The notes below the pieces were generated by a model. The model searched no databases. It was not told where the DNA came from and worked only from the letters and a program-made list of their open reading frames with translations. Of a stretch of DNA of 64,000 nt, positions 686-42,438 are shown in pieces. Within the stretch, counting starts at the first letter, position 1, and the number at the start of each line of letters is the position of its first letter. The stretch comes from a phage, in assembly GCA_018175275.1 (NCBI GenBank), contig GCA_018175275.1_4531.1, one strand, 5' to 3'. A program made the translations under genes and the position numbers.

Positions 686-1084
686 TTATTTTTTACGAAG
701 GGAACGTTTTTTAGCTGGAGTGTCTACCGCTTCTACTTTTAAAACTTCTTCTTTGATTTTTACAGGTGCATAATCTTCGTAACTTACAAGATAGTAACCC
801 ATGTGTTCTTCACTTGCAAAAGGATGCACAAGAATACCTGTTTCTTCTCTCAAACGTGTGAGGAAGTGAATGAAGTTTCCACCTAATGCAATACGACCAT
901 CTTTCAGATAGAAAGACATTGGTGGCGCAGATACTAATGTTTTATCAGCATCGATCAGTGGTGAAAGCGATTCGAAATCACGAATCATTTCGTGATAACT
1001 AAAGTAACGTTTCAATTCTGGGTTTGACATATCAATCTCCTCATTGTAAACTCTTGTTGTAAACAGAAAAGGCTCGCCCATCAC
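686..1084 (-). CDS. hypothetical protein, head/packaging module
   Basis: 132-aa ORF between capsid-like gene and the 182-aa ORF; position only. Confidence 0.35.
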   Translation of the reverse strand: MMGEPFLFTTRVYNEEIDMSNPELKRYFSYHEMIRDFESLSPLIDADKTLVSAPPMSFYLKDGRIALGGNFIHFLTRLREETGILVHPFASEEHMGYYLVSYEDYAPVKIKEEVLKVEAVDTPAKKRSLRKK

Positions 1085-1114
1085 GGACGAGCCTCTAATA
1101 TTAACAGAGTTCTG

Positions 1115-2116
1115 TTAAGCCGTAGTCAGTTTAACTACCAGTTCTGGACGAGTGTTAACTGCGAGCAGCGAGAATTCAGACTGAAGCTGAATGGTGCGGT
1201 GCTGGCTGATCATGAAGGTATACAGTTCACGAGCCTGGGTGTTAGCCAGTTCTGGAGTATCCGCAGGAGCGTAGTGCGCCTGGAACATACCTTCGATACC
1301 CATAGGCAGAACATATGCTTCACCAGCAGGGATGTTACCGTGGATATCTTCAATGTAAGTTACACCGTTCCATTCGAACACCTGAACATCCATGTTACCG
1401 CTAAGGCGGTCACGCAGAAGGTTAGGAGTTCCCTGGAAATACTGATACGCCTGGCGAACAAATGGAGAGTTAACCAGAGATGCGAAAAATTCACGAGAAC
1501 ACAGAGCTACGATACGAGTAGCGGTAGAGCCATCTTGTTTAGTATCGATGATGTAAGCACGAGCTTCTTGCTCGATAGTGGCTGCTGGAGAAACAGTGGT
1601 AGAAGCAAAGTCTACAGCAACAGATTTCTGGGTAGCACCCCATTCGGTATACCAGTTGTATGCAGAGTTAGCTGCACCACCTACGCCGTTATAGGCACGA
1701 CCCATAACTGCTTCTGCAAAGATTTTCTCTTTGGTTTTTGCTACGTCACGCAGAATCTGGGACATATAGCGGTTAACAACTTCAGCGTCTGTGCGCAGAG
1801 AGTCATTGATTCCTGCCATCGCAAAGCTACGGAAAGATTGAATATCTTGAGCTTTGATGTTTTTATCCAGAGGGAAGAACGGAATACGGAACGCTTTCAG
1901 TTCTGGATTTTTCATGGTCAGGAAGTTACGCTCACCACCACGCTCACGAGCGGAGATCAGAGCATCTTCAGCTTTTTCTTTACCGATTTCAATAGCGGTA
2001 GTTGAATGATAGTCAACGCTGAACAGATTCAGGCTGGCAATCAGTGTATCAGGGGAATCCTGAAGTTCGATCATAGGGCTGAAATCTACAACCTGATCTA
2101 AAATTACTGCTGGCAT
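1115..2116 (-). CDS. putative major capsid protein
   Basis: 333-aa ORF following the scaffold-like coiled-coil gene in the order terminase-portal-scaffold-capsid; call is positional, not motif-based. Confidence 0.4.
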   Translation of the reverse strand: MPAVILDQVVDFSPMIELQDSPDTLIASLNLFSVDYHSTTAIEIGKEKAEDALISARERGGERNFLTMKNPELKAFRIPFFPLDKNIKAQDIQSFRSFAMAGINDSLRTDAEVVNRYMSQILRDVAKTKEKIFAEAVMGRAYNGVGGAANSAYNWYTEWGATQKSVAVDFASTTVSPAATIEQEARAYIIDTKQDGSTATRIVALCSREFFASLVNSPFVRQAYQYFQGTPNLLRDRLSGNMDVQVFEWNGVTYIEDIHGNIPAGEAYVLPMGIEGMFQAHYAPADTPELANTQARELYTFMISQHRTIQLQSEFSLLAVNTRPELVVKLTTA

Positions 2117-2137
2117 TATATTAATCTCCTATTAAAA

Positions 2138-2536
2138 TTAAGAAGTGAAAACGACTTTTTCGGTCAGTTTCAGATCATGTGTTTCCAGTGCTGCTACGCC
2201 AGCGTCATCTACCAGGGAGCCATCTTTGTAGTATACTGCAAAGCGGTTCAGAGTAAGATCACGTACGCCAACAACTGCGGTGAAAGTGTCACCTACTGCT
2301 ACATCGTCAATACCGAACAGAGCATCAGTCCAAATCAGAACTTTAGCAGCATCGGCAGCTTCAGCTTTAGCAGCTTCAGTGTTGTCAGCTTTCAGGATAG
2401 AACCAATTTTCATGGTTGCTGTTTTAACCAGGTTAACTTCACGTACACAGTGTCCAAGGTCAGAGCTAAACACTCCACCCAGAACCAGGTGTCCGAATTC
2501 CTGGCGAGAGTTAGATAAAGTAATTCCTTTAGCCAT
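2138..2536 (-). CDS. hypothetical head-associated protein
   Basis: 132-aa ORF between scaffold-like and capsid-like genes. Confidence 0.3.
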   Translation of the reverse strand: MAKGITLSNSRQEFGHLVLGGVFSSDLGHCVREVNLVKTATMKIGSILKADNTEAAKAEAADAAKVLIWTDALFGIDDVAVGDTFTAVVGVRDLTLNRFAVYYKDGSLVDDAGVAALETHDLKLTEKVVFTS

Positions 2537-2555
2537 TTAATTTAATCTCCTAAGA

Positions 2556-3671
2556 TTATTGTTTCTGGGCTTTTTTAAGTTCAGCAGCTTTCTGACTAAT
2601 CAGTTCAGAAGAAGATTTAGCTACAGGTTGAGTATTGATCACATCAACACCACGTTCTGTTCCAAATTCTTTCTTAACTGCGTCCACTTCTGCACGTGCT
2701 TTTTCGAATGCTTTGACGATAGTTTCAGCGATATCTTTATTGTCTACCAGATATTTAACGAGAGCTTCAACTTTGTCTTCTTCTACGAAAGAATAGGATT
2801 TAACAACAGTTGTATATTCTTCTTCGATACGAGCTTGTTCAGCTTTACGAAGTTCTTCTGCTTCCTGTTCTGCCTTAGCAATTTTTTCCTGTGCTTCAAG
2901 TTCTGCGGCTGCACGTGCATCTGCGGCTGCTTTTTCTACAGCTTCAGCGATCTGTGCTTTCATCAGTTCTTGGAATTCAGCAGATTTCAGGAATTCTTCT
3001 TTGTTGATATTTTCCAAAGGGGTTTCTCCTTTATTGATTCCAGTTGTGTTTGCAGATTTATCACCTGCGGGGTTAGCCTCTGCATCCACAGAGTTTGTAT
3101 TAGCTTTAGCGTGAGCTTTCACTAAATAATCTTTAACTTGACTTTGTTTCAAGGAACTCTTAACGAGATTACTCAAAGCATCGTCTAAAACGTCCTCAAA
3201 GAAATCAATGGAGATCATTACATCACCATCAACAACTTGATAATCAGTAACACGAACAACAGGTTTAGCAACCTCTTCAACTTCAACATTCAGTCCGTCA
3301 ACTTTAAAGCCAACAGAGAACATGCCGTTATCTGAACAGAAAATTGCAACGTTCGCATCGAAGTCAGCATCAATAACGTAAACCCAATCCCAACCAGCTT
3401 CAAATTTTTCACGCACTTTTTCAGAGATGCGATCCATCACTTGTTGAATATAGCTTTTACGTAACTCTGTAACATCTTCTCCCATTTTAGTGAGAGCTTC
3501 TAACTTTTCAAAAGTTATGTCTGGAGATCCGTCTGACTTAAATAAAAGGGGGGTATTATAACCAGATGCTGCTCCACCTTGAAAATCGAAAGTGTAAGCA
3601 ATATGAGCACCTAGTGACTCTTCCGTAGCTTTTCCTGAAAAGTCTACGTTAGTTAAATATGTATTTGCCAC
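2556..3671 (-). CDS. putative scaffolding protein
   Basis: 371 aa; C-terminal Ala/Glu/Lys-rich coiled-coil segment (AAADARAAAELEAQEKIAKAEQEAEELRKAEQARIEEE); lies between portal-like and capsid-like genes. Confidence 0.4.
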   Translation of the reverse strand: MANTYLTNVDFSGKATEESLGAHIAYTFDFQGGAASGYNTPLLFKSDGSPDITFEKLEALTKMGEDVTELRKSYIQQVMDRISEKVREKFEAGWDWVYVIDADFDANVAIFCSDNGMFSVGFKVDGLNVEVEEVAKPVVRVTDYQVVDGDVMISIDFFEDVLDDALSNLVKSSLKQSQVKDYLVKAHAKANTNSVDAEANPAGDKSANTTGINKGETPLENINKEEFLKSAEFQELMKAQIAEAVEKAAADARAAAELEAQEKIAKAEQEAEELRKAEQARIEEEYTTVVKSYSFVEEDKVEALVKYLVDNKDIAETIVKAFEKARAEVDAVKKEFGTERGVDVINTQPVAKSSSELISQKAAELKKAQKQ

Positions 3672-3673
3672 GA

Positions 3674-4153
3674 TTAGTCCTTCTTGACTTTAACGCCCAT
3701 TGCGCCTATACTCAAACCTTTAAGAACGCCGTCTTTACGAGCTTGATATAATTCAGGGTCGTTGAATTGGATTTTAACGAGGGGAGTTCCTTCCACAACG
3801 AGTTCGTCACCAATGTAACAATCGACTTCATTTACCCAAGCTTTAATTGGAGAAAACTTATCGGTGTTCTTCATGTGACCAAGATTACCGCTAATGTTGG
3901 TAATATTCTCATTGAAGTTGTCAACCATCTTCCTGATTTCCAAATCAGACATGCGCTCTCCGTGGAGATCGTCTTCTTCAGGTGGACAATACAAGACCTC
4001 AATAACCTGCATCTTTTCTTCATCAAATTTATTTTGTTTGACTAAAGTTTCAGGTTTTTGAGATGGTATAGAATCTTGTTGGGATTCAGAATTCTCTTTA
4101 AAACCAGCGAAGGTTTTGAAGAGTTCCCACAGTGTATCTTTATTGAGTTCCAT
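3674..4153 (-). CDS. hypothetical protein, head morphogenesis region
   Basis: 159-aa ORF immediately downstream of the portal-like gene. Confidence 0.35.
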   Translation of the reverse strand: MELNKDTLWELFKTFAGFKENSESQQDSIPSQKPETLVKQNKFDEEKMQVIEVLYCPPEEDDLHGERMSDLEIRKMVDNFNENITNISGNLGHMKNTDKFSPIKAWVNEVDCYIGDELVVEGTPLVKIQFNDPELYQARKDGVLKGLSIGAMGVKVKKD

Positions 4154-4189
4154 TTGAAACCTCTTAAAAACAGATATCCCATAAATCTT

Positions 4190-4218
4190 AGTCTACAGGA
4201 TATTTGTTGTTTTGTCAA
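4190..4218 (-). promoter_or_regulatory. sigma70-like promoter (TTGACA-N17-TAGACT) upstream of the 159-aa head gene
   Basis: minus-strand TTGACA at 4213-4218 within the recurring CTATTGACA context; weak -10. Confidence 0.3.
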
Positions 4219-4246
4219 TAGAAAAATTAAAAAATATTAAATATTT

Positions 4247-5812
4247 TTAATTCGACAGGTTTTGTGCTGAAGGATCTAAAGCAGAAACAGTATCAGATGT
4301 TCCAGTACCTGCTGTAGCTAAACCATCTCCTGATCGTGAAGTTTTGTCAGGCATATAGTTATCCATGAATTCAAAGAATTTCTCTTTATTGGCAACAATA
4401 TCGTCAGGGATGCGATATTCGAAACCAATTTTTTCAAGGAACTCGTTAATAACTTCTGGGGTTAAAGGTATTGCACCAGAGGCTACCAACTGCTGAATAG
4501 CTTTAGCATTTACTTCAATATCAGGATCACCCATTTCACCACTGACAAACTTAGGCATATCTTCATCAGAAAGGAAGATATTGTTTAGTCGTAGTGTTTG
4601 AGGGATCAGTTGAGAGTTTATAGCTTCTACAACAATATCTACATCTCGCTCAATAAAATGAGACAATAGTGTTTGTTTGTTGTCAGAAAGCGCAAAACTT
4701 CCTGCATCACCATCACCCATAATCAACACACCCGCACCAAAGCGGTTATAAATATCCAGTTTGCGTTGTTTGATTAGTGCTTGAGTGTCAAACTGTTTAC
4801 CCGTGCCATCAACACCTTGGAATACAAGATCGTATTGACGCATCACTGTGCCTTCATAAACGTCCGAAGGCAATACCATGTAGGCTTGCTCACCAGAGTG
4901 CAGGTTAGCGATGTTGGCTTGGAGAACTCGAAGAGATTGTGCTTCATCCCCAGCAGGATCTAAAGACGCCCTGTTTAGAATGTCACTAGGAACCTTAAGA
5001 ACTGGCATACCGCCTAAATCTTTAGATACCCCAATAACCTCAAATTCCTGAATAAGAGATTTTTCACGCCAGCTACGATATACAGCTAAAAGCGGACTAA
5101 CTCCTAGTGGGTTATTCTCTGTAATGTTGCTACCAACAAATAAAACTTTACTGAAAGGAATTTCTTTAATACCAGTTTCTAAAGTTGTATTACCTGGGGC
5201 TAACATTGTATTGGTGATATTCTGGTTAACAGACAAGATAGAACGTCCGTCTGCCGAATATGTAAAAGGTTGAGCCATATGAAGAGTATCTTGTGGTCTA
5301 AAAGCCAGCTTAGTTAATCGCCAATACCCAAAGTAAGGACTCTTAGGATCTTCATCCAACTCATAAACTTTTTCTGCGAATGCAAACCCATATTGCTTAT
5401 ATGTCAAAAGTGATCTAACATATTGACGTAGAGGGGCTTGCATATTACGTAACATATAATCAATAAACTTAGCAGCTTTTCTTGACTTTGCTGAGCTTAC
5501 ATTGTATTTTATCTTAAAATCAAAGAATGCTCTATCTACAAAGATATACGTAGCATCAAGAGCAGTAGCTACATCAGGGTCTTCACCCATCTCTTTAAAA
5601 GTTCGAATACATTCTGGGAAACGAGTCTCATAAGGTTGCATGAAATTCGTAAATGCTTTGATTGAGTTTAATCCGATCGTTCCTATTTCAGGTGACAGGA
5701 GTAACGTTTTCTCTTTCTCTGCTTCTTTTGTTGGAGAGAGAGCAGCTTTATTTGCAGCACCTTTGTCCCAGTATTCTGACTTTTTAGTGTACGTTCTTTT
5801 TCCTGTTGACAC
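4247..5812 (-). CDS. putative portal protein
   Basis: 521-aa ORF directly downstream of the large terminase gene; size and position typical of portal. Confidence 0.45.
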   Translation of the reverse strand: MSTGKRTYTKKSEYWDKGAANKAALSPTKEAEKEKTLLLSPEIGTIGLNSIKAFTNFMQPYETRFPECIRTFKEMGEDPDVATALDATYIFVDRAFFDFKIKYNVSSAKSRKAAKFIDYMLRNMQAPLRQYVRSLLTYKQYGFAFAEKVYELDEDPKSPYFGYWRLTKLAFRPQDTLHMAQPFTYSADGRSILSVNQNITNTMLAPGNTTLETGIKEIPFSKVLFVGSNITENNPLGVSPLLAVYRSWREKSLIQEFEVIGVSKDLGGMPVLKVPSDILNRASLDPAGDEAQSLRVLQANIANLHSGEQAYMVLPSDVYEGTVMRQYDLVFQGVDGTGKQFDTQALIKQRKLDIYNRFGAGVLIMGDGDAGSFALSDNKQTLLSHFIERDVDIVVEAINSQLIPQTLRLNNIFLSDEDMPKFVSGEMGDPDIEVNAKAIQQLVASGAIPLTPEVINEFLEKIGFEYRIPDDIVANKEKFFEFMDNYMPDKTSRSGDGLATAGTGTSDTVSALDPSAQNLSN

Positions 5813-5881
5813 TTGTTCCTCCAGTCAGGTATAAAATCGTTAAGGCAAGGCTGTATTATATACAACCTCACCTATCTAGTT

Positions 5882-5910
5882 ATAATACACTTTAAAGTGA
5901 CTTTTGTCAA
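5882..5910 (-). promoter_or_regulatory. sigma70-like promoter (TTGACA-N17-TATTAT)
   Basis: minus-strand -35 TTGACA (plus 5905-5910) and -10 TATTAT (plus 5882-5887), between terminase and portal genes. Confidence 0.45.
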
Positions 5911-5913
5911 CAA

Positions 5914-7989
5914 TTATCTTTTACGGACACTATACGGTTGGTGAAATCCGCTGTTCATTCTACTGTATCCTGTAGGAGCATTTGTTGTTGCAGGGATAGC
6001 TACTGCCTTGAAAGTATTCTCTTTTGACAGAGTATTGAAACAAGAAGCAGCAGCATCGGGAATGTCATCTTTAATAGTGGCTGTAGATCTTTCACCATTG
6101 AAAGATTCCAATTCTTTATAAAAGTGGGTTAGAGTTTCCACATTAGGGAAAGAATCTTCAACAATATAAACAAAACCATTTTGACACGCACTACTAAAAG
6201 GCATAAAACGCTGAAGCTTTTTCTTGTTACCTGGCATAGCATCTGGTTTAACAACAAAACCTTCTAGAATAAGTTTCTTTGCAGACTCTGTATATTCTAT
6301 TGTCCCAGCGCCAGATGGGTCTTTAGGAAGCACTACTGTAACTTCTGGTCCATCAATCTTACATTGATTAAGAATCAGATTATCCCTTTCCCCAGGTAGT
6401 CTTCTAAACCTTCCGAAAATTTTACTTTTCTCATCCACAGCGTCATAGTCATAGTCACCAAAGATGTAGATATTACCATCTTGATCTTTACCCATTTTGA
6501 CAGACGTTGTATAGTCTGGATAACGATAAGTTTCTGTAGGAACTGAAACAGCTTTATCCCAGGCTCGCATTAGTTTAAGATTGTTAGGAACATCTTTATA
6601 AGATATTTTATGTAACCATTCACGTTGAAAGAAAGATTCTTTCTGAATACGTGCAAACCAACAACCATCCAGAAGCTGTGCTCTTTTAATTGCTGTTTGT
6701 GATTTAAGCTGTGCTAAGTAATTAGGGTTAAGCCTAATCAGTTCTGGGTTATCAAATATTGTCCCACCAATAAATACGAAAGTTTGTGGTTCAATAACAA
6801 CTGTCTCCCCTGTATTAGGGTTTTCCATGAAACAGTTTTCTGGATATTTTTCTTTCAGTTCTTCAGGTGTGTCAGCAAAAACAGGTTCATCGTTAACAAT
6901 GATGAAATATTTTTGTTTACCACACATATCTTCTCTAGGATAACCACCCTCATCAAGATAAGGTAACACCCAATTCAAAACCCAACTATCTGCATCGGGG
7001 TTACATGTGCACAACATGAAGCTTGTTTCTGATTCTGAACGCATACGTCCCAGAAGATAGAGCATTTCATATTGCGTGAAGTGGGTTAACTCGTCAAAAC
7101 CTACCATTGAATACTGTGTACCCTGATGGTTTGTTTCTGCTGTTACGTTATCATTTTCCAAATGGTCGAATTTGAGGGTTCCACCACCAGTGGCTTCAAA
7201 AATGATATCCATTGTACTTTCTTTTACGTGCGGTTGTAAAGGAAGATACAAACGTTTTGCTTCTGTAAACAGACCACCTGGTTTACGGTGAGCAGTGGTG
7301 TTCTTACGGAAAAGTATTCCACCAAACAAAGGATCTTTGTAGGCGTATTTTAAAGCTTTCAGCAATAGCAGACGAGACTTGCCGCTATTCCCAGTAACGA
7401 AGCAGTGATCGCCACGTCTAAAGACAATATAGCTGCTTGGAGTCTCAAAACAATATTTCTTATCATCTGTTGAAATAACCTCGTGTATTTTTAAGTAAGT
7501 GCTCTTTTTACCAGGTATGTTAAAAGGAACACGTTTACCGAATGGATTTTCTACATAACCTTGAAGGGGTTTTCCTATTTGCTGTAATGCAATAAGATCT
7601 CCTACAAGAATCTCAAAATGTTTCTTTGATTTCTTTTTCTTATAGAATACAAAACGGTGTTCCATACTAAGTTCTTGGAACAACCCTACACCATTTGTTA
7701 TTCTGTATAGGTTATCTCCATTTAAATCGTATTCTACAAAATAAGGTGTTACCAATTCTAAACGCTTATTCTTAGGGTTGTATTGGTAAATATCTTCTCC
7801 CGAATATTCACTAATCTGTCTCCAACCATCTTTTGTAAGATATTCCGTTTCAGCAGAAACACATCCAGCGGCACCACCATAAATCATAACTTCTGGCATT
7901 AAATCCATTGCAAGAGTCTGTTTACCTGGTTGAGCCTTTACTTCAATATCTACTCCAGCTAAACTACCTGCTGCCTTTTTCTTTGCCAC
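5914..7989 (-). CDS. terL: terminase large subunit, interrupted by a mini-intein
   Basis: 691 aa; Walker B-like VGFDELTHF and downstream LCTCNPDADSW; N-terminal GGAAG and GKSR halves of a P-loop separated by a 159-aa insert with intein block A/B signatures. Confidence 0.6.
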   Translation of the reverse strand: MAKKKAAGSLAGVDIEVKAQPGKQTLAMDLMPEVMIYGGAAGCVSAETEYLTKDGWRQISEYSGEDIYQYNPKNKRLELVTPYFVEYDLNGDNLYRITNGVGLFQELSMEHRFVFYKKKKSKKHFEILVGDLIALQQIGKPLQGYVENPFGKRVPFNIPGKKSTYLKIHEVISTDDKKYCFETPSSYIVFRRGDHCFVTGNSGKSRLLLLKALKYAYKDPLFGGILFRKNTTAHRKPGGLFTEAKRLYLPLQPHVKESTMDIIFEATGGGTLKFDHLENDNVTAETNHQGTQYSMVGFDELTHFTQYEMLYLLGRMRSESETSFMLCTCNPDADSWVLNWVLPYLDEGGYPREDMCGKQKYFIIVNDEPVFADTPEELKEKYPENCFMENPNTGETVVIEPQTFVFIGGTIFDNPELIRLNPNYLAQLKSQTAIKRAQLLDGCWFARIQKESFFQREWLHKISYKDVPNNLKLMRAWDKAVSVPTETYRYPDYTTSVKMGKDQDGNIYIFGDYDYDAVDEKSKIFGRFRRLPGERDNLILNQCKIDGPEVTVVLPKDPSGAGTIEYTESAKKLILEGFVVKPDAMPGNKKKLQRFMPFSSACQNGFVYIVEDSFPNVETLTHFYKELESFNGERSTATIKDDIPDAAASCFNTLSKENTFKAVAIPATTNAPTGYSRMNSGFHQPYSVRKR
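7387..7863 (-). other. candidate mini-intein (Hint domain) within terL
   Basis: insert begins Cys (CVSAETEYLTKDGWRQISEY, block A-like), contains LSMEHRFVF (block B-like S/T-x-x-H), ends ...VTGN followed by Ser; excision gives YGGAAG|SGKSRLL = GxxxxGKS. Confidence 0.5.
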
Positions 7990-7998
7990 ATTCCCTCC

Positions 7999-8343
7999 TT
8001 ATTCAGAAATAATACCTTTCTCTTGCAGTGTTTTAATATATGTTTGTAAACCTAAAACCTTTCGTCTATCTTGCTCCCAAAGAGCATTGTTTTGAGTTTG
8101 GTTGTTAACAACTTCAGATCTACTAACCCCTTTTGCAATTTGATTTTTAGTGTATGGCACAGGTGTCGATACTTTATCCATCAAATCAGAATCTGGACCT
8201 CTAACCTTTTCTATTGCTACGGCCTTACACTCATCAATAAGAACTGGGGAAACTTTTGTTGATGATGAACAACCCGTCATCATTAGGGGCAAAGCAAGAC
8301 ATACTGCCAGAATTAGTTTTTGCATAATTCGTTGTATCCTCAT
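7999..8343 (-). CDS. putative o-spanin (Rz1-like outer-membrane lipoprotein)
   Basis: 114 aa; signal peptide plus lipobox-like LMMTGC; overlaps the 3' part of the Rz-like gene in another frame. Confidence 0.5.
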   Translation of the reverse strand: MRIQRIMQKLILAVCLALPLMMTGCSSSTKVSPVLIDECKAVAIEKVRGPDSDLMDKVSTPVPYTKNQIAKGVSRSEVVNNQTQNNALWEQDRRKVLGLQTYIKTLQEKGIISE

Positions 8344-8626
8344 TGATCATTTGTTTCTTCTTCTCTAAATCTGCTTTTAATTGTGCATTGTTTTTAGACA
8401 AGCTATTTATTTGGGTATTTAATAATGCTCTTTCTTCATCTGCTCTTTTTTGAAGAACATTAAAATCCTGTTTTGCTTTTGCTTGGGCTGCTTGATATAA
8501 TTGTGTTTGATAGGCAACACCATCTTTGTAGCCAGACTCACGTATCTTGTTATAAGCAAACATTCCGGCAAAAATAAGAACAACAATTAAAACAAAACCT
8601 AACACAGTTTTAGTCTTTAGATTCAT
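8234..8626 (-). CDS. putative i-spanin (Rz-like)
   Basis: 130 aa; N-terminal transmembrane helix (VLGFVLIVVLIFAGMFAY) followed by Gln/Ala/Lys-rich coiled coil; overlaps the lipoprotein ORF. Confidence 0.5.
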   Translation of the reverse strand: MNLKTKTVLGFVLIVVLIFAGMFAYNKIRESGYKDGVAYQTQLYQAAQAKAKQDFNVLQKRADEERALLNTQINSLSKNNAQLKADLEKKKQMINEDTTNYAKTNSGSMSCFAPNDDGLFIINKSFPSSY

Positions 8627-8905
8627 TATCTTCTACTTCCTCGTAAAATTTTATTTTAGGAAGAGAAGGGGCATTATTAACTATCTTCTTCACTTCCATT
8701 GGTTGAGATTCCGCTAGGATCTCTTCCCACGTCTTCTCTATCATCATAGAGTTCTTCCTCCAAATTCCAAACACGTGTGTAATCATTCTTTTTATCTTTA
8801 TGATAAGAAGAGCGGTTAAAGTCATTTTTAACTACAAAATTGCGCATATTTTATCCTCCTCATATCTGATCTTATCATAAAATGATATACAATTGCAAGC
8901 ATTAA

Positions 8906-37660: not shown

Positions 37661-38161
37661 ATGGCTAAAGTAGTAGATGAGTTTGATATGCTACGAGTCG
37701 ATGAAGGACTGAAGCTTACTGTTTATCAAGACCATCTTGGTTATTGGACAGTCGGCATAGGACACCTTCTGACTAAAATAAAAGATAAAGCAAAGGCTAT
37801 TCAAATCTTAGATAATCTCCTTGGTCGTAAGACCAATGGAGTTATCACAGAAAAAGAAGCCCGTCAAATCTTTGCTGACGATGTTGCAAAAGTGAAGAGA
37901 GACATAAAAAACAGTGCTATCTTATCACCAATCTATGATAAGGTGAGTGATACTCGTAAATTGGGAATAATCAACATGGTTTTCCAGTTGGGGTTAAAAG
38001 GTGCTGAAGGGTTTAAAAATAGCTTGACTTTAATCAGCAATGCATATTATACTCAAGCAGGTAAAAACATGCGTAAAAGCCGATGGTATAGCCAGACGCC
38101 AAACCGTGCTGAACGAGTAATTAAAGTTCTGACTTCTGGAACTTTAGATGCTTACAACTAA
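37661..38161 (+). CDS. endolysin, T4-type lysozyme (GH24)
   Basis: 166 aa, near full-length similarity by eye to T4 lysozyme: LRVDEGLKLTVYQDHLGYWTVGIGHLLTK, KTNGVITEKEA, INMVFQLG, SRWYSQTPNRAERVI. Confidence 0.8.
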   Translation: MAKVVDEFDMLRVDEGLKLTVYQDHLGYWTVGIGHLLTKIKDKAKAIQILDNLLGRKTNGVITEKEARQIFADDVAKVKRDIKNSAILSPIYDKVSDTRKLGIINMVFQLGLKGAEGFKNSLTLISNAYYTQAGKNMRKSRWYSQTPNRAERVIKVLTSGTLDAYN

Positions 38162-38163
38162 TA

Positions 38164-38180
38164 AAGGGGCTTCGGCCCCT
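38164..38180 (+). terminator. GGGGC-TTCG-GCCCC hairpin (weak T-run)
   Basis: second copy of the tetraloop hairpin, directly after the lysozyme stop. Confidence 0.35.
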
Positions 38181-38197
38181 TCTAAAAGGAGTGCTAC

Positions 38198-38957
38198 TAT
38201 GGGAAATAAAACCGCAGCTAAAACACAACGGCAGAAACTGGCTAATTCAGCAAAGATTGAAAGCCGTTATGCAGCAAAAGCGGTAGGTAATGACGATTAC
38301 CGTTTAGATGAATTTATGCCTGAAGGGGACCAAAATAAGATTGTTCAAAGCATGATTTGGAATGATCTGACTGTTGTAAATGCTCCGGCAGGGACTGGTA
38401 AAACCTCTGTTGCTTTATGGAAAGCTTTGCAGATGCTTCGTTCAGGAGACTTCCGTAAACTACTTTTTATCAAGAACCCTACTGAAGTCGGAGATGACCA
38501 GATTGGTTTCTTGTCTGGGGATAAAACAGATAAACTAGCAGCACACTACGAATCTACAAAACGTATTTTCCAGCAATTCATGACAGCCAATAAATTGGAA
38601 AATGATATTGGATCAGGTAAGATCGAATTGAATATTCCTAACTATTTGTTGGGAGCTACCCTGGATAATACAATTGTCATTATTGACGAAGCACAACTTA
38701 TGTCAACAGAAACACTTAAACTTCTTATTGAACGTGCAGGTATTAATACGCATGTTATTGTATTAGGCGATGTTCGCCAGACATATGCAATTAAAAAACG
38801 TAGCAATGGTCTGCATCAAATTTTGGAACTTTTATATCCAGAAAATGAAGAAGGTGTTCGTGAGCCAATTGTAGATTTTATTGGATATGTTGAACTGACA
38901 ACGGACGATAATAAACGTGGACGTTTGTCTAAACTGATTACTGAAGTGTTTATTTAA
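38198..38957 (+). CDS. phoH: PhoH-like ATPase
   Basis: Walker A NAPAGTGKTSVAL, Walker B-like IVIIDEAQ; ATG 38198 with AAAAGGAG RBS (track ORF starts 38148). Confidence 0.65.
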
Positions 38958-38989
38958 TAACGTGGCAGGGAAGCCATTTATAAGGAGGA

Positions 38990-39493
38990 TTGATGGGTGT
39001 AGCAACAATAGCTATCGGAAGAAGTGGTATAGATGAGTGCTATCAAACGGGACTCGTAAAACCTAACGAATTTCGTCAAATTTGTGTAAACCATATTGAA
39101 AAAGAGATTGCTCTTACTTTAGAGAATATGACCCTCCGAGATAAACTGGAAATGTTTAAATGTTGGTGTCTAGGAGAAGATTGGCTTTTAAACCATTTTC
39201 AAGAACTTTCTGATAGTAAAGAAAGCTTGTTTGATTGTATAATAGGAATAGCTGGCTCCGATCCTAGCCTTCTGCACATAACAGAAGAAGAGGCGAAGTT
39301 ACTGTTCTTAAGTAATTTGTTTAATAAGAAAGCACTGCTTGTTCGTGATTGCAGTGATCTTCTTAATAACCCGCTCGCAACGTCTGATCAAATTTTTGTT
39401 GACAAAGAGACACTACGTGCGATAGAATACATCTGCAAATATGTGAATGGCGGGAAAGCGGTTCTTAAAACATTAACAGAGGAGGAAGAATAG
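38990..39493 (+). CDS. hypothetical protein
   Basis: 167-aa ORF with AAGGAGGA RBS. Confidence 0.4.
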   Translation: MMGVATIAIGRSGIDECYQTGLVKPNEFRQICVNHIEKEIALTLENMTLRDKLEMFKCWCLGEDWLLNHFQELSDSKESLFDCIIGIAGSDPSLLHITEEEAKLLFLSNLFNKKALLVRDCSDLLNNPLATSDQIFVDKETLRAIEYICKYVNGGKAVLKTLTEEEE

Positions 39494-40185
39494 TGACGAC
39501 AATTATTGCAACCAAGAATAAGATTTTGAGTGATGGTAAGGTAACTTTTGGCGGACGTGTAGATTCTATTAATTTCAAAAAGGTCCGAAAAATTGGAGAT
39601 TACCTTGTAGGTGGTGCTGGTCGTCTGACCTCCGTGCTTTCTTTCTTTCAATGGTTTGAACAAAACCTACAGTGCGAAGCAGCACGTGATGCTGTCCCTG
39701 GTTTGATGATTCATTCTGATCCAGATAAAGAAGATGAAGAGTTTATTGCGCTTGTTGTTCATCCAGACGGACGTATTTTCCTGCACGAAGGTAACAATCC
39801 AACACGTGCATATCCGATTGATGAAGAATATTATGCAGTAGGAAGTGGGTCAGACTTTGCTTTAGCTGCTCTTGATGCAGGGGCAACACCAGAACAAGCT
39901 ATGGAAGTAGCTAAAAAGCGAGATGCTTTTTCTGGTGGTGAAACATTTATTGAAGAACAAGACGAGATTATTGAATTAACAGACGATGATTTAGAAAACT
40001 TCTCCAAAGAAGAATTAATCAATCTTTTGAAATTCGGTAATCCCTACGGTGAAGAAGAACCTCGTAACGTGGCAGGTAACGAGGCGGACACTGAAGAAAA
40101 ATCTGTTGCAGAAAACAACTTGACTTCTAAATCTGAAAATATTAATCTCGTAAATGTGGCGGATTTCGAAGGAACCGCTATTTAA
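39493..40185 (+). CDS. HslV-like N-terminal-nucleophile peptidase with acidic C-terminal extension
   Basis: 230 aa; N-terminus M-TTIIA (Thr at 2), VGGAG, YAVGSGSDFALAALDAG parallel HslV TTIVSV/GFAGG/IAIGSGGPYAQAAARA; about 70-aa acidic tail. Confidence 0.5.
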   Translation: MTTIIATKNKILSDGKVTFGGRVDSINFKKVRKIGDYLVGGAGRLTSVLSFFQWFEQNLQCEAARDAVPGLMIHSDPDKEDEEFIALVVHPDGRIFLHEGNNPTRAYPIDEEYYAVGSGSDFALAALDAGATPEQAMEVAKKRDAFSGGETFIEEQDEIIELTDDDLENFSKEELINLLKFGNPYGEEEPRNVAGNEADTEEKSVAENNLTSKSENINLVNVADFEGTAI

Positions 40186-40190
40186 CAAAC

Positions 40191-40212
40191 TGCCCCTTCG
40201 GGGGCATTTCTT
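40191..40212 (+). terminator. rho-independent terminator
   Basis: stem TGCCCC/GGGGCA with TTCG loop followed by TTTCTT. Confidence 0.45.
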
Positions 40213-41656: not shown

Positions 41657-41851
41657 ATGCAGAGCGGAGAAGAACTTTTAGAGAAACAATTCTCAACGCG
41701 TCAACAAGCTTTAAGTTATATGGTTTTTCTAAGTAATCTTGATGTGAATGAGATACTTTTACGGCGCGAAGGTAATTTCTGGAGCGTTAAATATCATGCA
41801 ACAAGGTCTGTAATCTACCTGGAAGAGGCGGAATTCTCTTTGGTAGAATGA
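41657..41851 (+). CDS. hypothetical small protein
   Basis: 64-aa ORF with AAGGAGGGA RBS. Confidence 0.35.
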   Translation: MQSGEELLEKQFSTRQQALSYMVFLSNLDVNEILLRREGNFWSVKYHATRSVIYLEEAEFSLVE

Positions 41852-42438
41852 TCCGAGGAGTAGTTATGCGTTCAACTTTCACTGGCAAAATAAACGCTGG
41901 TTTGATTTTTACCGCAGTAAGCATTCTTAGCAAAAAGTTTAAAGTTGTTAACTTACCTGTGTGTGTCGATTTCGATCATGTTTTTGATCCTTCGAACCCC
42001 ACTCGTTGCATAGTAAGGAGTAATGTTGAAAACCCAACAGAAAATCTTTTTTATGTAACAAAACCATCTCAAAGCATACTTAACCAGGTTGAGGCGAAAT
42101 TGATACCTAACGGTAAATATTACTCCTTTTTACCTTGTAAGTCGGTTGAAGTAGAGAATAGCAGTACTTTCGCTAACAACTTGTCTGTATTCGTTTTCTT
42201 TGTTTCGCACGAAGATGAAACAGATGAAATGGTAGCAACAGTGAGATCACTTTATGACTCTTTAGGGGTTGTTTATAGACAACAAGTGTGCGAAAATAAT
42301 AAAGCCTGTGTAGATTTCATTATCAACGGTATTTGTGTTTGTAGAGTAGAATCTTTTTGGCTGCACGATACATATGTGACTGTAGCAGAGGTTATATCTG
42401 AACCAAAATTTAGTCATGCGGTTTCGTTAATAATTTGA
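41848..42438 (+). CDS. hypothetical protein
   Basis: 196-aa ORF. Confidence 0.4.
   Translation: MIRGVVMRSTFTGKINAGLIFTAVSILSKKFKVVNLPVCVDFDHVFDPSNPTRCIVRSNVENPTENLFYVTKPSQSILNQVEAKLIPNGKYYSFLPCKSVEVENSSTFANNLSVFVFFVSHEDETDEMVATVRSLYDSLGVVYRQQVCENNKACVDFIINGICVCRVESFWLHDTYVTVAEVISEPKFSHAVSLII

Follow-up and report, generated by a model that had tools for sequence, protein, structure and literature searches.

A predicted proteasome-family threonine peptidase with a two-part acidic C-terminal extension in phAPEC8-like phages

The DNA analyzed here is a 64,000-nucleotide stretch of a phage genome (contig GCA_018175275.1_4531.1 of GenBank assembly GCA_018175275.1), referred to below as the window, and the subject of this report is a gene at coordinates 39493..40185 on the plus strand, which encodes 230 amino acids followed by a stop codon. 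The product is the orthologue of phAPEC8 gp175 and a putative peptidase of the phage proteasome-homologue (PPH) type that carries a C-terminal extension. An 8-kb region is 99.7% identical to Phapecoctavirus genomes and the window thus derives from a Phapecoctavirus, a group of phAPEC8-like myoviruses of ~150 kb within the subfamily Stephanstirmvirinae. Genes in 64 phage records match the protein at 99% identity or more, and homologues are present in 234 phage records, with hosts that include Escherichia, Vibrio, Caulobacter, Aeromonas, Klebsiella, and Rhizobium. RefSeq labels phAPEC8 gp175 'peptidase HslV family', and other depositors have used 'ATP-dependent protease subunit', 'putative proteasome component', and 'putative 20S proteasome' (for example, phi92 gp058); among the PHROGs, phrog_1040 ('peptidase HslV family') matches the protein with an E value of 1.6e-63.

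The reading frame has a single possible start codon, a GTG, and an in-frame TAA lies nine codons upstream of it, so that the product must begin fMet-Thr-Thr-Ile-Ile and there is no room for a propeptide. A Shine-Dalgarno sequence read directly from the DNA, GAGGAGG (39479..39485, plus strand), is positioned 7 nt before the GTG, and AGGAG or GGAGG sites likewise precede the orthologues in phi92, ALITA, and Tr1. The GTG also shares one base with the stop codon of the preceding reading frame (38990..39493), the orthologue of phAPEC8 gp174. A possible private sigma-70 promoter (TTGACA-18-TAGAAT, 39399-39428, with 11 of 12 positions matching) was considered, but its position is within the gp174 reading frame and phi92 and ALITA do not conserve it, and we do not claim it. 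In some GenBank records, such as that of vB_EcoM-Ro121c4YLVW (159 aa), an internal ATG at 39706 (Met72) is used as the start codon. These records are misannotated, because the Met-Thr-Thr start holds across the family, and a product beginning at Met72 would lose the catalytic threonine.

The protein scores 25.6 bits (E = 1.1e-5) with the Pfam family PF00227 (Proteasome), whose gathering score is 22.4. In the PDB it is best matched by sequence to HslV chains, at E = 4.9e-9 when the sequence is used alone and 6e-15 when a profile of 50 sequences is used, with the alignment running from Thr1 onward. An AlphaFold2 (AF2) model built on an alignment of 50 relatives has a mean predicted local distance difference test (pLDDT) value of 85, with values above 90 in the core (residues 1-155), and the top ranks in a Foldseek search with this model are occupied by HslV, the beta-proteobacterial proteasome homologue (BPH), and proteasome beta subunits. 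The predicted core has the alpha-beta-beta-alpha arrangement of the N-terminal-nucleophile (Ntn) hydrolases and is superposable on both HslV and proteasome beta subunits. Fold prediction with superposition on HslV was the check proposed in the original prediction, which had described the gene from its letters as a phage-encoded HslV-like N-terminal-threonine peptidase, and on this point the description is borne out.

The catalytic residues were scored in an alignment of 50 relatives extending down to 26% identity. Residues M1, T2, T3, I4, D14, K30, and G117-S118-G119 are invariant in this alignment, as is the M-T-T-[IV] pattern at the start, and G40, G41, A42, and G43 are almost invariant. The Thr2 codon (39496..39498, plus strand, as for the other motifs) aligns with HslV Thr1 and specifies the predicted nucleophile after removal of the methionine; Asp14 (39532-39534) and Lys30 (39580-39582), which delimit the segment 39532..39582, are the counterparts of HslV and proteasome Asp17 and Lys33; GGAG at residues 40-43 (39610..39621) corresponds to the oxyanion-hole glycine region, GFAGG in HslV; and Gly117-Ser118-Gly119 (39841..39849) corresponds to the G-S124-G active-site motif of HslV. 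The motifs MTTII, VGGAGR (residues 39-44), and AVGSGSDFALAALDAG (residues 115-130) therefore occur in the HslV order, as had been noted at the outset for the GGAG and AVGSGSDFALAALDAG segments. Homologues from Vibrio, Caulobacter, Rhizobium, and Rhodobacter phages, as well as two of metagenomic origin, have an ATG or TTG start codon directly before Thr-Thr.

Judged by its motifs and its modeled fold, the protein is a proteasome-family (MEROPS T1-type, Ntn-hydrolase fold) N-terminal-threonine peptidase, and the claim that the phage encodes such a peptidase, with the proteasome/HslV fold and a complete, conserved catalytic set, holds. Conservation of the whole catalytic apparatus favors an active enzyme over a scaffold or decoy. 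We consider it very probable that the protein is an active enzyme of the PPH lineage and not an HslV orthologue.

The PPH lineage was named by Fuchs, Alva and Lupas (2021) (PMC8665760), and the passages of that study bearing on it describe proteins of ~140 residues without C-terminal elements, lacking both the second helix (H2) and S12/H5, with the absence of H2 being shared with the RPC group; no unfoldase partner is described there for PPH. Several of these features recur in the window protein. Its family belongs to tailed phages or prophages of Proteobacteria, and it has no propeptide, with the threonine immediately following the initiator methionine, an arrangement repeated in six other loci. 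Neither H2 nor S12/H5 is seen in the model, the core ending after the last strand at residues 151-155. It departs from the compact ~140 residues given in those passages, in that its 230 residues comprise a 155-residue core plus a 75-residue extension.

Profile searching agrees with this placement. Among 1.84 billion representative proteins, 61 clusters (at 50% identity) match at E ≤ 1e-30, nearly all of them containing proteins of 183-350 aa that are matched well beyond the core and into the extension. Below these lies a continuum of proteins of 137-156 aa scoring 104-127 bits with the family profile, whereas solved HslV chains score just 47-59 bits with the same profile; the nearest relatives outside the protein's own clade are thus these short phage and metagenome proteins. 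The cluster members of ten short relatives are metagenomic entries only, some of which were named 'HslV' by JGI. Judged by the published description of the group in the passages cited above and by the profile scores, the window protein belongs to the PPH type, to which a C-terminal module has been added.

The distance from HslV is considerable. The protein shares 27% identity with E. coli HslV, and with the NCBIfam HslV equivalog models it scores 32.2 bits (NF003964, cut-off 137) and 31.4 bits (TIGR03692, cut-off 157.75). In the AF2 model a single long helix, H1 (residues 45-67), is followed by a 17-residue coil (residues 68-84), with no H2 where HslV has its second apical helix, and the H1/H2 helix pair that forms the HslU-facing surface of HslV is therefore missing from the model. 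In place of H2 and the pore loop there is an acidic, proline-containing loop, VPGLMIHSDPDKEDEEF (39694..39744, plus strand), with a net charge of -5. Taking conservation as the mean frequency of the commonest residue among 59 relatives, this loop scores 0.85 and the core 0.86. HslV residues 79/80, within H2, line the pocket for the HslU C-terminal tail (PMC6429459). Because the protein falls more than 100 bits short of the equivalog cut-offs, H2 is absent from the model, and the nearest relatives are short phage proteins, the phage protein is not an HslV orthologue. The description 'HslV-like' is consequently sound as regards fold and catalytic set, but finds no support in the operational sense, as a partner or an inhibitor of host HslU.

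The C-terminal extension (residues 156-230, 75 residues) contains 20 Asp/Glu and 5 Lys/Arg, giving a net charge of -15, and confirms that the protein has an acidic tail that HslV lacks. It has two parts. The first is a helical hairpin at residues 163-186, TDDDLENFSKEELINLLKFGNPYG (39979..40050, plus strand), with AF2 helices at 164-169 and 172-181 and a pLDDT of ~90; its conservation is 0.72 among the 59 relatives. The hairpin motif is present in 97 of 121 extended relatives, is retained in a Vibrio-phage homologue of 37.6% identity, and recurs at 35-50% identity, including in Vibrio phage 1.193.O, which has EELTEEDIRAMSHEDLLKLVLGG. The second part is a disordered, fast-evolving acidic tail (residues 187-230; 40051..40182, plus strand; pLDDT <55), in which the same 59 sequences show a conservation of 0.23, gaps at 47%, and no C-terminal residue that is conserved. 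Where extensions exceed 40 aa (n = 117), 96-100% carry a net negative charge, which amounts to about -0.15 to -0.19 per residue. These sequence comparisons suggest that the extension is under selection, with the hairpin sequence being kept while the tail varies yet stays acidic. Longer relatives (246-379 aa) have no Pfam match beyond the proteasome core, and some have further domains in place of the tail.

Within the hairpin, an internal D-D-D-L-E-N-F stretch (TDDDLENFS, residues 163-171, 39979-40005) faintly resembles the E. coli HslU tail, ...D-E-D-L-S-R-F-I-L, and we considered whether the extension mimics the HslU activating peptide. This candidate was rejected: the essential terminal residues are missing from the stretch, which is internal and does not persist in distant relatives, while the true C-terminus is unconserved. 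The likeness is probably due to chance. It is also one of two points in favor of regarding the protein as a decoy or inhibitor of host HslUV, which would titrate HslU or poison HslV rings with its own proteolysis being irrelevant, the other being that phages often neutralize host proteases. A pure decoy has no need of a full catalytic set that is invariant down to 26% identity, however, and the HslU-like stretch has no free carboxylate, is without the terminal I-L, and is lost in distant relatives; moreover, the C-terminal residues are unconserved and the short members have no extension at all. The suggestion in the original prediction that the protein inhibits host HslUV is thus contradicted by the invariant catalytic residues, and we give a decoy role only a very slim chance.

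The gene lies in a nucleotide-metabolism, replication, and accessory block that includes ribonucleotide reductase, glutaredoxin, dTDP-sugar enzymes, lysozyme, PhoH, methyltransferases, a Ser/Thr phosphatase, and Sir2. Among window open reading frames of at least 100 aa, Walker A motifs are present only in PhoH and in two small reading frames, and no HslU/ClpX-like or other AAA+ unfoldase is encoded, in accord with the initial observation that no HslU-like ATPase is nearby; neither HslU nor ClpX nor Lon appears in the complete annotation of phAPEC8. The genetic pairing with hslU that is characteristic of HslV is therefore absent from the window reading frames and from the phAPEC8 annotation. 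The sole AAA protein of phAPEC8, gp014 (PF00004), was considered as the missing unfoldase and rejected, since it is outside the window and its distribution is unrelated to that of the peptidase: its homologues are in Enterococcus, Bacillus, Staphylococcus, and Lactococcus phage records that are absent from the peptidase tblastn matches, and several are annotated as clamp-loader-like. At phAPEC8 139005-141404, gp014 is followed by an annotated 'endonuclease' that combines four CapR-homology domains with a treble-clef zinc finger, and the distribution of this pair does not track that of the peptidase.

Upstream of the peptidase is a PhoH-like P-loop ATPase gene (38148..38957, plus strand; Pfam PF02562, E = 1.2e-36). 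All the extended-type loci that were examined have the order lysozyme, PhoH, one to six small genes, and peptidase; they comprise the window, phi92, ALITA, Tr1, two contigs from metagenomes, and phages of Vibrio and Aeromonas whose homologues are 35-38% identical. Between PhoH and the peptidase in the window lies the gp174 orthologue (phrog_14834, 167 aa; 38990..39493, plus strand), whose stop codon overlaps the peptidase start in four lineages (the window, phi92, ALITA, and Tr1). Homologues of gp174 were located on the same contigs as the peptidase, although none was detected in locus L008 or in the Vibrio phage. The AF2 model of gp174 is all-alpha with a pLDDT of 92, and there is no Foldseek match in the PDB better than E = 0.18 and no Pfam or NCBIfam family; the modeled structure may be a new fold. 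As a partner gp174 is uninformative, in that neither its homologues and model nor the Foldseek, Pfam, and NCBIfam analyses gave a functional clue.

This arrangement raises the question of whether the PhoH-like ATPase and the peptidase, possibly with gp174 as an adaptor, form a two-component ATP-dependent degradation module, for which synteny is the sole basis. The constant gene order, the overlap of the gp174 stop and the peptidase start, and the loss of PhoH, gp174, and the peptidase together in a single deletion in phage VEcB (see below) are in keeping with such a module. Synteny, and with it the PhoH linkage, may however reflect no more than the shared ancestry of one gene block. PhoH is missing from the surroundings of the short homologues in Caulobacter, Rhizobium, Rhodobacter, and N4-like Vibrio phages, which stand alone among small hypothetical genes or next to genes for RNA repair and NAD salvage. 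Further, a gp174 homologue goes undetected in two of the loci, as noted above, and PhoH-like proteins are tied to RNA metabolism, not to the unfolding of proteins, and are found in very many phages that do not have this peptidase. Taken together, we regard a PhoH-peptidase module as highly improbable. Among the short homologues, that of Rhodobacter phage RcXuper is situated between an RNA ligase with two polynucleotide kinases on one side and NMNAT/ADP-ribose pyrophosphatase and nicotinamide phosphoribosyltransferase on the other, a neighborhood (791-8723) typical of counter-defence functions.

Escherichia phage VEcB (NC_052663.1, 2665-3468) carries one in-frame fusion of PhoH (residues 1-133) to the peptidase (residue 63 to the end), matching window 38148-40185. 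The deletion of ~1.2 kb has taken out the PhoH C-terminal half, the whole of gp174, and, together with Thr1, the N-terminal half of the peptidase that carries the catalytic site, and the fusion is still labeled 'peptidase HslV family' in RefSeq. VEcB was deposited as the complete genome of a sewage E. coli phage, and given this natural deletion the gene block appears to be dispensable for propagation, which fits an accessory role for the peptidase.

The VEcB deletion also bears on whether the peptidase could be the prohead protease that matures the capsid, as phage-encoded proteases are mostly head-maturation enzymes. A distance of ~35 kb and a difference in strand separate the gene from the head module; it stands among nucleotide-metabolism and replication genes, and VEcB lacks its catalytic half. 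In addition, an XkdF-like S78 protease is encoded within the head module itself, beside the portal gene (3677-4153, minus strand; Pfam Peptidase_S78_2, E = 1.4e-11), and because of this separate enzyme the threonine peptidase is not the prohead protease, an explanation that we regard as effectively refuted. The XkdF-like gene is called 'DNA methyltransferase' in RefSeq phAPEC8 (gp117); it is probably a mislabeled prohead protease.

Directly after the peptidase stop codon is a GC-rich stem-loop, TGCCCCTTCGGGGGCA (40191..40206, plus strand; -12.8 kcal/mol, z = -2.7), followed by a weak T-run. Hairpins at this position are found in five lineages (the window, phi92, ALITA, Tr1, and the metagenomic locus L009), with 6-8 bp, GC-rich stems and mostly a tetraloop, and the stems differ in sequence (GCCCC/GGGGC, ACCCCC/GGGGGT, AGCCC/GGGCT, and GCTCCC/GGGAGC). 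They were folded sequence by sequence, as a MAFFT alignment set the stems out of register. The hairpin may be a leaky terminator or a 3' mRNA-stabilizing element. Further downstream (41848-42438, plus strand) is a gene for a 196-aa protein that matches phrog_4806, 'histidyl tRNA synthetase', and has no Pfam match; a second such copy is present in phAPEC8 (gp042). The label is doubtful, since 196 aa is far below the size of HisRS.

How might such a protein act? We envisage that host deformylase and methionine aminopeptidase strip the fMet, as for E. coli HslV (MTTIV...), leaving an exposed threonine that would supply both the nucleophile and the free alpha-amine, such that autoprocessing would be unneeded. 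By analogy with the solved relatives HslV, BPH, and 20S, the subunits would form stacked rings with the active sites inside. With H2 replaced by the acidic loop and no unfoldase gene in the window or in the phAPEC8 annotation, HslU-free action appears most likely, and the substrates may be peptides or unfolded or disordered, perhaps basic, polypeptides. The outward-facing extension, with its hairpin and acidic tail, would probably serve in assembly, gating, or the recruitment of partners or substrates. We judge independence from HslU to have somewhat better than an even chance, and the statement as a whole, that this is a catalytically competent peptidase of the PPH lineage acting as an HslU-independent accessory, to be fairly probable.

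A number of points weigh against this interpretation. The missing H2 is known from one AlphaFold model only, and pLDDT is 79 for residues 71-80. The hydrophobic residues of the HslU pocket contributed by H1 in HslV, F57 and F60, are retained as F52 and F55, and a remodeled HslU docking site is possible. The known hosts are all Proteobacteria, which typically carry HslU, a distribution compatible with use of the host unfoldase. PPH placement was made by described features and profile scores, as an indirect stand-in for clustering with the published representative WP_042125023.1, and the deletion seen in VEcB could be an artefact, either of assembly or of the laboratory. Literature searches on phage HslV and proteasome homologues returned genome descriptions and a 2021 bioinformatic survey only, with no experimental study of any member. 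To our knowledge BPH has no demonstrated proteolytic activity, so that catalytic residues alone are no proof of protein turnover.

The retained H1 hydrophobics and the host distribution are also what recommends the alternative that the peptidase docks on the host HslU hexamer (or on ClpX), replacing host HslV and redirecting the host unfoldase; HslV is the closest solved relative by both sequence and fold, and no unfoldase is encoded in the window or listed in the phAPEC8 annotation. Set against this, the pocket-lining H2 with residues 79/80 is absent from the model and a conserved acidic loop stands in its place, identity to E. coli HslV is as low as 27%, and the scores fall short of the equivalog cut-offs by over 100 bits. 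The short members are lone genes in very different phages with no conserved partner, and the passages of Fuchs et al. on PPH describe none in the form of an unfoldase. The earlier proposal that the protein is a partner of host HslU or ClpX is thus not supported, and we consider it unlikely.

The uncertainty about BPH, together with the metabolic or modification enzymes encoded by the neighboring genes, might instead point to a non-protease Ntn enzyme, either a connectase-like, sequence-specific transpeptidase or ligase or an amidase with a small molecule or modified protein as its substrate. The two-helix insertion that covers the active site of connectase is absent, however, the closest folds are HslV and active beta subunits, and the conserved Thr/Asp/Lys/Gly-Ser-Gly residues are arranged as in the members that are proteolytic, all of which makes this very unlikely. 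A more elaborate version of HslU-free peptidase action has the protein as a self-contained, unfoldase-independent machine in which the acidic loop at the ring entrance and the acidic tails capture basic host or defence proteins for the threonine sites. Its targets might be nucleoid-associated or other nucleic-acid-binding factors, and PhoH or gp174 might serve as cofactors. We view this version as improbable; if it were true, host takeover or counter-defence would for the first time be seen to employ a functional proteasome-like protease of viral origin.

The homology of these proteins is already part of the public annotation, and the family of phage proteasome homologues was described bioinformatically in 2021. 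What is added here is the placement with PPH rather than HslV, the replacement of H2 by an acidic loop and the conservation of that loop, the two-part extension with its compositional acidity, the conserved block from PhoH to the peptidase, and the natural deletion in VEcB. The preferred reading of an HslU-independent accessory peptidase leaves the puzzle of a stand-alone proteasome homologue in a virus that has no unfoldase recognizable by annotation, and easily grown E. coli phages such as phAPEC8 and the relatives of phi92 make the role of such a protein tractable.

Comparison with the known members of the family places the protein as follows. With HslV (ClpQ) it shares the N-terminal MTTI and the equivalents of D17, K33, and GSG, as well as a maturation that probably proceeds by removal of the methionine alone; it differs in the distance from Thr1 to the GSG serine, which is 7 residues shorter in the phage protein, in having the acidic loop for H2 and the 75-aa acidic extension, and in the absence of an accompanying hslU gene. 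Like the phage protein, BPH (PDB 5ovs/5ovu) counts among the group I proteasome homologues for which no unfoldase partner is known, and its long, highly acidic pore loop, which section 3.3 of Fuchs et al. ties to the absence of an unfoldase (PMC8665760), has a parallel in the conserved acidic loop at the corresponding place here. The sequence similarity to BPH is marginal, however (E about 1), and BPH retains H2, has no acidic C-terminal extension, and is chromosomal. The RPC proteins, as characterized in the sections of the same study on these groups, are related to PPH, have no H2, and carry extra C-terminal sequence, but they are found only in proteobacterial genomes and not in phages, are more divergent, and have a folded C-terminal domain of unknown structure, whereas the extension of the window protein is a short helical hairpin with a disordered tail. 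The closest likeness in these sections is to PPH itself, with which the window protein shares its occurrence in a phage of Proteobacteria, the threonine directly after the methionine, the Thr/Asp/Lys triad, the glycine motif, and the lack of H2, and from which it differs in its length of 230 residues and in its C-terminal elements, the conserved hairpin of helices and the disordered acidic tail.

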